DNA from: a phage
DNA: 64,000 nucleotides
Sequence record: NC_102531.1
Reading direction: 5' to 3' (one strand)
Each line of letters opens with the position of its first letter. Within the stretch, counting starts at the first letter, position 1. Under the pieces are notes generated by a model, which saw only the letters and a program-made list of their open reading frames with translations, was not told the origin of the DNA and made no database searches. Shown piece after piece: positions 1-1,761 of the stretch. The position numbers were made by a program, and so were the translations under genes.

Positions 1-495
1 GGCGGACGGAATGGGAATACTTCTCATTCTTATAATAATTCTCAAATATCGAGGCAGTGAGGCAAATTAATAGGCCAGGCCGTTCACACAGTGGCACAAC
101 ATTTGCAACCTATCTTGGGCGGGTGAATGAGAATACCTATCATTGTGAGAACTGTTATCATTACGGGCAATTTAACATAATACCCATTATGCGCACCACT
201 GGCGATACATACAGGGATTGATAACATGGGTTACTGTTTACGCACATAACAATTATATTTCTTACTATTTGTGTGGGATATAGTTAGCAGCCGATAGATT
301 AGATATTAACCTGCAGACTTCTGACCGTCCAGACGTCTAAACGCCCACACACCAAGGATTATACATACACTCCTGAATGTAAACAGGGCCGCAAAAATGC
401 TACCATACAAGCTTGTAAATTTTCCATGCAGCACTTGACAAAGAGGAGAAAAACTTGTCTGACATAATGTGACCTAACTGTCACAACATGACACT

Positions 496-580
496 TTTAC
501 ACACCTATTAGTTTACACACTGGATTGTTTACATTCCTGATTGTTCACATGCTAACCATTTACATGATTGACTGTTTACA
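496..580. repeat. Periodic array of six TTTACA-core repeats (one is TTCACA) at 15-16 bp spacing, cores starting at 496, 512, 528, 544, 559, 575
   Basis: Counted directly in the sequence; non-coding context. Confidence 0.6.
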
Positions 581-592
581 CACCGATAATCA

Positions 593-612
593 GCCATGCC
601 ATTCGTTTGCAT
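593..612. repeat. 20-bp direct repeat gccatgccattcgtttgcat, copy 1
   Basis: Exact match to 824..843. Confidence 0.7.
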
Positions 613-676
613 GACAATAATTATACATGACAATAATCGCACTGATTATAATTAGCATGACATAATATAAAAGCAG

Positions 677-704
677 GGCAACTATTAGCAGATCTATAGT
701 TGCC
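677..704. repeat. Inverted repeat GGCAACTAT / ATAGTTGCC (9-bp arms) around an AGATCT-containing spacer
   Basis: Arms complementary on inspection; related GGCAACTAT / ATAGTTGCC motifs recur near 736 and 843. Confidence 0.5.
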
Positions 705-823
705 TTGCTTGTCATGTCATGATTAACTAAATACAAGGCAACTATGATCTGATTAATAGTTTGCAGACAAACTATCACGGGGGTGATGGTTACTGCTTTT
801 ATATTATGTCGCGACTCCGTCGC

Positions 824-843
824 GCCATGCCATTCGTTTGCAT
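824..843. repeat. 20-bp direct repeat gccatgccattcgtttgcat, copy 2
   Basis: Exact match to 593..612; preceded by palindrome cgcgactccgtcgcg. Confidence 0.7.
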
Positions 844-1454
844 AGTTGCCTTATTGTTACAGGTAAAACAATTACATTATTAATTATTTCTTATCTTTTT
901 CTTAGTCATCTAATGATTCCAGTCAGTATAGTAATGTACAGTAAACATTAGACGACTAAAGATTTCCCTGCTTATGATAACCTAACGTGACAATTACGAA
1001 CTGTTTACGAAAAATGTTGACACCGGGACAGGTTTATGTTATGTAGTTTATACGAATAATTATTTTGTACAGGTATTGACTATTCCGTTATTCTGTGGTC
1101 GGAATAAATACTTTGCAGGCTATAGAATGGTGATCGTACGTGGATTCTGAGATCTGTCGGCTATAGTTACACCCGATTTTTCACGTAGGACACGCTTTTT
1201 GGTTTGTGTAAGTGTATGAATTATAAGAATTTTTATTTGTTGACAAGATATTGAAGATATGCATCAGGTTAAAATTTATGCAGTAGCGGCATTACGTGCA
1301 ATTTTGGAAGAGAAAACGGGTAAAAATGACACTGCTACCACACAATGAAAAGTTATGCAATAGTTATTTTACCTGTATGTTTGTACAGTGAGGGCAATTG
1401 CTGGCTTGTTGGTTATTCCACTTGTCAGGCGGGGCCGTTTGTGGTAGGAAAAGA

Positions 1455-1485
1455 GCAGACAAAAAGAAAGGGGCCTAAGCCCCTT
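1455..1485 (-). terminator. Intrinsic terminator closing the leftward early block
   Basis: Stem AGGGGC / GCCCCT with loop CTAA, followed on the minus strand by TCTTTTTGTC; lies just downstream of the stop at 1498. Confidence 0.55.
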
Positions 1486-1497
1486 GATAATGTTGTA

Positions 1498-1761
1498 TTA
1501 TTTGTTACTCATCCAGCTTTCCCAAGCTGCCTGATAATCTGCCTCACTACGGCGGATCTCTTCTTGCTCTTCAAGGCGGATCTCTTCTTCAAGGTACCCC
1601 AGGATATCGGATTTTTTGGTCTGGCGTAGCATCCAGTCATCTTTTTTGCGGGTAAAGATCTTATAAGCTTTCTCGCAAACCTCTTTTTTGCTACCTTTTT
1701 GGACTTCAAGAATTCTGTAGGCCATGTACTGAACTAATTTAAGCTGATCCAGACGTTTCAT
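1498..1761 (-). CDS. Hypothetical early protein (87 aa)
   Basis: ORF with AAGAGGA Shine-Dalgarno upstream; terminator downstream. Confidence 0.5.
   Translation of the reverse strand: MKRLDQLKLVQYMAYRILEVQKGSKKEVCEKAYKIFTRKKDDWMLRQTKKSDILGYLEEEIRLEEQEEIRRSEADYQAAWESWMSNK

Follow-up and report, generated by a model that had tools for sequence, protein, structure and literature searches.

The left terminal repeat and its inner boundary

The 64,000-bp stretch of phage sequence record NC_102531.1 analysed here (the window) opens with a non-coding zone of approximately 1.5 kb, and this study concerns two short-motif arrays and an adjoining palindromic block within that zone. The arrays begin where the left direct terminal repeat (DTR) ends on its inner side. 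Further inwards lie a 20-bp direct repeat flanking a large hairpin element, an AT-rich tract and a terminator-like hairpin that closes a leftward gene block (Table 1). A first-pass annotation made from the sequence alone had marked positions 440–900 as a gene-free repeat region with the look of a replication origin or a terminase recognition (pac/cos) site. Its description of the region as free of credible genes holds, since all open reading frames (ORFs) overlapping 440–900 are short (62 aa or fewer), and so does its placement next to the terminator of the leftward block. The region is further argued to be non-coding because indels are frequent in relatives.

Bases 1–1500 of the window match 119 phage records at 89–94% identity, all from the genus Vequintavirus (rV5-like E. 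coli myoviruses), and the window forms the left end of such a genome. The right end of this phage's own genome lies outside the window, as do the remaining ~73 kb. Several matching records (16–18) are named 'Campylobacter phage' and marked UNVERIFIED; these are near-identical to E. coli vequintaviruses and are probably mislabelled or contaminant genomes.

Base 1 of the window is base 1 of the records of phages EdH4 and HdK5, for which Korf et al. give terminal redundancies of 458 bp (PMC6563267). The mapping studies on EdH4/HdK5, LL12 (PMC6658697) and Gotham (PMC7471380) place a non-permuted DTR at window positions 1–459. Compared base by base, the EdH4 record closes on the right with an exact copy of its first 459 bp, and the PhageTerm DTR coordinates of LL12 fall on window 1–459, with the boundary reading ...AAACTTGTC|TGACAY.... 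Positions 1–459 are therefore assigned as the left DTR. For comparison, 16 distinct relatives were assembled from 14 GenBank genomes and two IMG/VR contigs. The boundary CTTGTC|TGACAY is common to 17/17 genomes compared, the DTR is always 459–460 bp long, and unique DNA begins with TGACAY in every one of the 16 relatives.

On the evidence of the EdH4 record, the LL12 coordinates and a window that starts at the identical base, this phage is neither of the cos nor of the headful-pac type and has exact, non-permuted short direct terminal repeats in the style of T7. The earlier proposal of an origin or pac/cos region is thereby supported in part: its terminus option is strongly favoured by position, as the region straddles a physical end boundary at 459|460, but this end is neither cos nor headful pac, and most features of an iteron origin fail, as discussed below. 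Within a concatemer, the genome that comes before acquires its right physical end at 459|460, presumably through a cut by the terminase, as is general among DTR phages. The arrays start directly at this mapped end boundary.

Phased motif arrays, the inner block and neighbouring genes

The array segment is composed of two successive modules. Module A starts at the boundary and consists of GACAY-type motifs. It is degenerate in this phage, with TGACAT at 460–465, TGACCT at 469–474, an inverted GTCACA at 480–485 and TGACAC at 489–494. Module B is well developed and comprises six AYTGTTYACR-type units whose TTYACA cores start at 496, 512, 528, 544, 559 and 575, giving spacings of 16, 16, 16, 15 and 16 bp. 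With module A at 460 and module B at 491–496, a non-coding array of short motifs lies within tens of base pairs of the inner boundary. The first-pass annotation had listed six TTTACA-core repeats at 15–16 bp spacing between 496 and 580, and these were recovered with the core relaxed to TTYACA, the copy at 544 being TTCACA. It had also described TGTGAC and GTCACA as flanking the array. Both motifs exist (468–473 and 480–485), but both are located upstream of module B and GTCACA is not conserved, being replaced by GACACA in EdH4, naswa and Alma. The two are degenerate members of the GACAY family.

A six-member chain at 15–16 bp spacing was not obtained in any of 300 first-order Markov simulations of the 64-kb window, where the maximum was three members, reached once. 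Elsewhere in the window, any 100-bp stretch holds at most 2–3 TTYACA motifs per strand and there is no second TTYACA cluster, while TGACATAAT is found at positions 460 and 658 only; the array is unique within the window. The array strand is without secondary structure (z = -0.44). An Rfam scan of 1–1600 identified no known RNA family, with a single sub-threshold chance match to tsr25 (17.8 bits, where the gathering score is 63), and a sigma-70 promoter scan gave 5 sites compared with 7.1 expected, none of them within 440–900. The locus carries no coding, promoter or RNA-family signal.

Comparison across the 16 relatives identified the array segment as a hotspot of turnover (Table 1). Module A is present in 1–7 copies, and 35 of 45 successive GACAY spacings are 9–11 bp. 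Module B is present in 1–8 strict copies, with 32 of 43 spacings at 15–16 bp and 10 more near multiples of this period (30–32 or 45–46 bp). The AYTGTTYACR consensus was built from 46 distinct units, among which A(-4), G(-1) and the TTYAC core hardly vary. The array segment ends in GATGATAAGCCATGCCATTCGTTTGCAT in most relatives. The motif cores, their order and both periods are kept despite the turnover, which is as expected of redundant protein-binding arrays and counts against pure neutral drift. No description of the arrays was found in a keyword search of the reports on rV5, EdH4/HdK5, LL12, Gotham, KPP-1, BpE1AUH, the septuagintaviruses and the BASEL collection, a thin survey in which the term 'repeat' was sought in the rV5 paper alone.

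Inwards of the arrays is a block bounded by two exact copies of a 20-mer, GCCATGCCATTCGTTTGCAT, whose positions had been given correctly in the first-pass annotation. A scan of IMG/VR with this 20-mer returned two contigs only, both of them vequintaviruses. Between the copies is a cruciform-capable branched hairpin with an outer stem formed by an exact 18-nt inverted repeat (659–676/793–810). This inverted repeat had gone unnoticed at first pass, together with the CATGACAATAAT pair and the 459-bp DTR ending inside the region. The arms of the hairpin start with GACATAAT, a motif that is also found at the DTR boundary. Its inner parts consist of a GGCAACTAT-N10-ATAGTTGCC palindrome at 677–704, an imperfect second copy at 737–763 and a GC hairpin at 770–791. 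The GGCAACTAT/ATAGTTGCC palindromes reported earlier are present at 677–685/696–704, 737–745 and 842–850. Phage FV3 has one 20-mer and the whole 593–823 block is absent; the block was either lost by recombination between the direct repeats or never there. Provided that the FV3 assembly is right, phages can do without the palindromic block. The 659–810 element might serve repeat duplication as a fold-back or nick site, belong to an origin or correspond to an RNA.

The motif NYAACTAT, counted on both strands, occurs seven times in the first 1.4 kb of the window and 17 times in the remaining 62.6 kb. It forms inverted pairs at 677–704 and 737–763, and GTAACTAT forms inverted pairs at a similar place in Klebsiella phage KPP-1. 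NYAACTAT may be an operator-like site common to several genera.

The genes from 1.5 to ~38 kb are all encoded on the minus strand, including a T7-like DNA polymerase (family A) and a primase-helicase, and those at the right genome end lie on the plus strand. Transcription accordingly converges on the junction, an arrangement also given in the LL12 paper (PMC6658697). The GC skew follows gene orientation. The rV5 paper likewise attributes a skew change at this locus to gene orientation, with the genome still assumed to be circularly permuted (PMC3606486). The nearest seven ORFs gave no significant Pfam domain and the nearest five fall in PHROGs without an assigned function, yielding no candidate binding protein or initiator. 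Several GenBank records give the label 'DNA translocase FtsK' to an 87-aa ORF adjoining the non-coding zone (1498–1761, minus strand). This label appears unfounded, as the product has no Pfam match and falls in a PHROG of unknown function; weak homologues (41% identity) are encoded by Salmonella siphoviruses. Several relatives carry an extra 139-aa gene beyond the terminator (rV5 ORF164) that is missing from this phage. The right part of the zone, 824–1456, contains several TTGACA-type promoter-like sites on the plus strand, is 632–634 bp long in 16 genomes and could encode small RNAs or peptides.

At the other end of the genome, the EdH4 right end is non-coding over ~960 bp, in which CCCCTGCCCCGCCGG occurs twice. 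The motif CCTGAAGAG is found there five times, on one strand and with irregular spacing, within 1.2 kb (extracted segment 3318–4505, just before the right DTR), and once in the whole 64-kb window, on the other strand. The right-end 5 kb and positions 4.4–54 kb of EdH4 were scanned for NYAACTAT and CCTGAAGAG, and the right end also for repeats. The dispersed CCTGAAGAG copies may correspond, on the right-hand side, to the arrays of the left end, though they are non-periodic.

Table 1. Features of the left end of the window, with conservation of its segments among the relatives compared
Feature	Position (bp)	Strand	Evidence or remark	Median identity to window	Length in relatives
Left copy of the DTR, 459 bp, non-coding	1–459	.	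EdH4 exact right-end repeat; LL12 PhageTerm coordinates	94.7%	459–460 bp, invariant
Inner DTR boundary, ...AAACTTGTC|TGACATAATG...	459–460	.	EdH4 and LL12 mapping
Array segment	460–592			57%	106–219 bp
Module A, GACAY-type motifs, consensus TGACAYWWTRG, starting at boundary	460–495	+	Comparison of 16 relatives
Module B, six AYTGTTYACR-type units, period 15–16 bp	491–585	+	TTYACA cores
Inner block	593–823			84%	213–294 bp (absent in FV3)
20-mer direct repeat GCCATGCCATTCGTTTGCAT, copy 1	593–612	+	Exact; preceded by GATGATAA in most relatives
CATGACAATAAT	610–621 and 626–637	+	Further GACAWAAT motif copies
CATGACATAAT	655–665	+	Further GACAWAAT motif copy
Cruciform-capable branched hairpin, 152 nt	659–810	.	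DNA fold -43.8 kcal/mol, z = -10.9
20-mer direct repeat GCCATGCCATTCGTTTGCAT, copy 2	824–843	+	Exact; overlaps ATAGTTGCC (842–850)
Right part	824–1456			89%	632–634 bp, invariant
AT-rich tract, ~22% G+C	851–930	.	Lowest G+C in the 1.5-kb non-coding region
Terminator-like hairpin closing the ~36-kb leftward gene block	1467–1485	-	Right limit of the non-coding zone; EdH4 annotated likewise

Candidate functions of the arrays

The arrays are interpreted, tentatively and with confidence a little short of even, as a cis-acting array for terminus recognition or cutting, serving packaging or end processing. This reading is the best supported because the arrays start at the mapped end boundary, are phased, are unique within the window, do not code for protein and keep a conserved architecture through rapid turnover of copy number. 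The like-built array of T7 and the ORF-less terminus region of ICP1, both treated below, also speak for it. From these observations we infer that a protein binds the arrays, what kind of protein it would be and that its binding would serve packaging. The region would then lie on the unique-DNA side of the junction between concatemer units, in a phage with exact DTRs of the T7 style, where two phased arrays run from the inner boundary, GACAY approximately every 10 bp and then AYTGTTYACR every 15–16 bp. Most likely, the arrays would be bound as double-stranded DNA by a phage protein that acts in packaging or end processing, for example the small terminase or an accessory factor. The resulting nucleoprotein complex would tag the junction and direct the cut to 459|460, and the cruciform-capable element at 659–810 may join in end processing or repeat duplication.

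A more specific version of this scheme is decidedly unlikely. In it, the arrays would form a protein-coated barrier or ruler that fixes the inner edge of the 459-bp repeat by stopping a translocating or scanning terminase, the cut would fall at the first GACAY unit, and the 659–810 cruciform would act as a fold-back primer or nick site from which the second repeat copy is regenerated. If true, it would constitute an undescribed and genetically tractable way of making exact short terminal repeats in large myoviruses, and it might recast the 'pac' region of Vibrio phage ICP1, whose two cut sites are 460 bp apart.

Several observations weigh against a packaging or end-processing role. Module B is reduced to 1–2 strict units in some phages, among them FFH2, navn and C7, and a long array is evidently not essential since these phages are viable. 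The periodic arrays are restricted to the genus Vequintavirus and sister genera are without them: KPP-1 (genus Mydovirus) exhibited no periodic arrays at its mapped DTR boundary, and in Septuagintavirus A5-4 no array was seen when the non-coding zone was read by eye, the DTR of that phage being unmapped. Nor is there a matching array beside the other cut, at the outer DTR boundary, as the EdH4 right end contained no GACAY or TTYACR array in a scan for repeats that did not target these motifs specifically. A period of 15–16 bp places successive sites on opposite faces of the helix, which is unusual for DNA wrapping round a small-terminase ring. Finally, to our knowledge the packaging role of the comparable array in T7 is not firmly established, and a literature search on the function of the T7 elements SRL and SRR gave nothing usable.

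A replication origin of the theta or rolling-circle type is considered unlikely. The arrays would then be iterons for an initiator or host DnaA, and the palindromic element and the AT-rich tract at 851–930 would be where the DNA is unwound or nicked, perhaps in a link with packaging of the kind suggested for ICP1. As in the iteron origins of lambda (ori) and of plasmids (oriV), clustered direct repeats, palindromes and a nearby AT-rich tract occur together, here with a 22% G+C tract and all within 450 bp. Some 270 bp, including an apparently dispensable block, separate this tract from the array. One unit of module B (495–503, TTTTACACA) fits a relaxed DnaA box and 10 of the 46 distinct units are one mismatch away from it. 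The rV5 paper records a skew change at the locus (PMC3606486), and in ICP1 a late rolling-circle origin has been inferred close to the non-coding pac/terminus region (PMC7145576). The ICP1 case keeps the origin reading alive, and packaging and origin could be linked.

The details of the arrays fit an origin poorly. The conserved core is AYTGTTYACR and not a DnaA box, from which 35 of the 46 units differ by at least two mismatches, and DnaA boxes (TTWTNCACA) are not enriched, numbering 3 in 64 kb against 8.3 expected, with one exact match in the region. Iterons would be at least three repeats of 17–22 bp in helical phase (period ~11 or 22 bp) and in stable number; here the core is short (~10–11 bp), the 15–16 bp period is non-helical and the copy number is unstable (1–8). 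No recognisable initiator was detected among the nearby ORFs with Pfam or PHROGs. Flanking transcription is convergent instead of divergent, as the LL12 paper also indicates, and no skew switch independent of transcription is present, the skew merely tracking gene orientation. The palindromic block is missing from FV3. The replisome genes are T7-like, encoding a family A polymerase and a primase-helicase, and T7-like replisomes usually start from transcripts, not from iterons.

A near-neutral hypervariable minisatellite, generated by slippage or unequal recombination beside a recombination-prone end and without sequence-specific function, is decidedly doubtful. It would account for an array length of 106–219 bp and an identity of 57% in genomes that are otherwise ~90–95% identical, and for the 1–2 strict units of some phages. 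Against it, all 16 lineages retain the motif cores and both periods through the turnover, the core is nearly invariant in the 46 units, and the two motif families occur in a fixed order with the first always at the boundary. The units are also not simple tandem copies of each other, as their spacers differ, which suggests that selection acts on core and spacing together.

Binding sites for a factor outside packaging and replication (a phage transcription regulator, a host nucleoid protein, RNA polymerase or a post-injection end-protection factor) are very improbable: TGACATAAT resembles an extended -10 element (TGnYAYAAT), the module B unit holds a small palindrome, TGTnnACA, of the kind commonly seen in sites for dimeric helix-turn-helix proteins, and the injected DNA ends ~460 bp away from the locus, but the motifs are absent from the other intergenic regions of the window, which makes a general regulator site unlikely, there is no promoter excess, and no plus-strand gene follows before the terminator at 1467–1485.

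Several narrower identities were tried and rejected. A promoter array with TTTACA as the -35 element fails on the sigma-70 scan given above, and TGACATAAT as a general extended -10 or phage promoter fails on its two sites (460 and 658) in 64 kb. A CRP site, TGTGA...TCACA, at 468–485 has the wrong spacing (N8) and a second half that is not conserved in EdH4, naswa and Alma. The reading of TTTACACA as a DnaA box holds for a minority of units, and a GC-skew search for the origin returned a skew that tracks gene orientation.

The recognition and cutting of concatemers and the duplication of repeats are essentially unstudied in large myoviruses with short exact terminal repeats. A conserved, phased motif array at the cut site offers a defined cis element for deletion, footprinting or bait experiments; should the arrays turn out to be dispensable, they are merely an ordinary hypervariable non-coding stretch. 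The CTTGTC|TGACAY signature, together with the 459-bp repeat, would allow permuted Vequintavirus records to be re-oriented to their true ends. Vequintaviruses are widely used in E. coli O157 biocontrol and in therapy cocktails, where packaging specificity and transduction matter.

Comparison with known systems

The closest analogue among the systems checked is the array of T7, an analogue and not a homologue. In the T7 sequence, 12 CCTAAAG-type motifs with a 13-bp period were located at 175–338, the first of them 15 bp inside from the end of the 160-bp terminal repeat; we take this array to be the SRL of Dunn and Studier 1983. Both phages have an exact, non-permuted short DTR (160 bp in T7 and 459 bp here), a non-coding array of 7–11 bp motifs with a fixed period within 0–40 bp of the inner boundary of the left repeat, and a T7-like DNA polymerase and primase-helicase. 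The motifs themselves share no sequence similarity, CCTAAAG recurring at 13 bp in T7 in contrast to GACAY at ~10 bp and AYTGTTYACR at 15–16 bp here, where two successive modules are present instead of one. T7 also carries a second, looser array of related type across the repeat, in whose place only the dispersed CCTGAAGAG was found at the EdH4 right end, with no related array as an SRR counterpart. T7 is in addition a 40-kb podovirus with its own RNA polymerase, an enzyme that takes part in junction processing. By analogy, the arrays are best filed as kin of the repeat arrays flanking the terminal repeats of T7-type phages.

Phased short repeats also form small-terminase sites, among them the pacL/pacR boxes of SPP1, the R sites of lambda cosB and the hexamers of P1 pac. 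Module A resembles these sites in its short motifs at roughly helical spacing beside the cut (GACAY every 9–11 bp), in being non-coding and in being unique, here within the 64-kb window. The known sites differ in belonging to cos or headful packaging instead of exact DTRs and in having known small terminases, and the 15–16 bp period of module B is without counterpart among them.

The packaging site and termini of ICP1 fall within an ORF-less region of 1.3 kb between gp1 and gp2 (PMC7145576, PMC11417361), with PhageTerm peaks at 431 (+) and 891 (-) (PMC7145576), and no small terminase has been identified (PMC11417361). ICP1 is related to the present phage in its replication genes, with a DNA polymerase that is 45% identical, the 460-bp distance between the peaks matches the 459-bp DTR, and NYAACTAT motifs occur in both non-coding regions. 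ICP1 differs in that its flanking genes diverge where those of the window converge, in its interpretation as a headful packager and in the lack of alignable sequence; no periodic array was found in ICP1_2006_E 1–1425. ICP1 may have a short exact DTR instead of headful packaging.

For KPP-1, a PhageTerm DTR of 514 bp is given in its report (PMC9862379). Its boundary sequences are recognisably related to those of the window, and an analogous 205-nt branched hairpin is located ~310 bp inside the DTR (extracted segment 2339–2545, z = -11.7), with an outer stem that begins GCGACACAATAAC. As A5-4, KPP-1 and ICP1 show no arrays, the arrays are genus-specific and the gene-free junction and hairpin element are more widespread, the junction being common to all three phages and a large hairpin element being present in KPP-1 as well.

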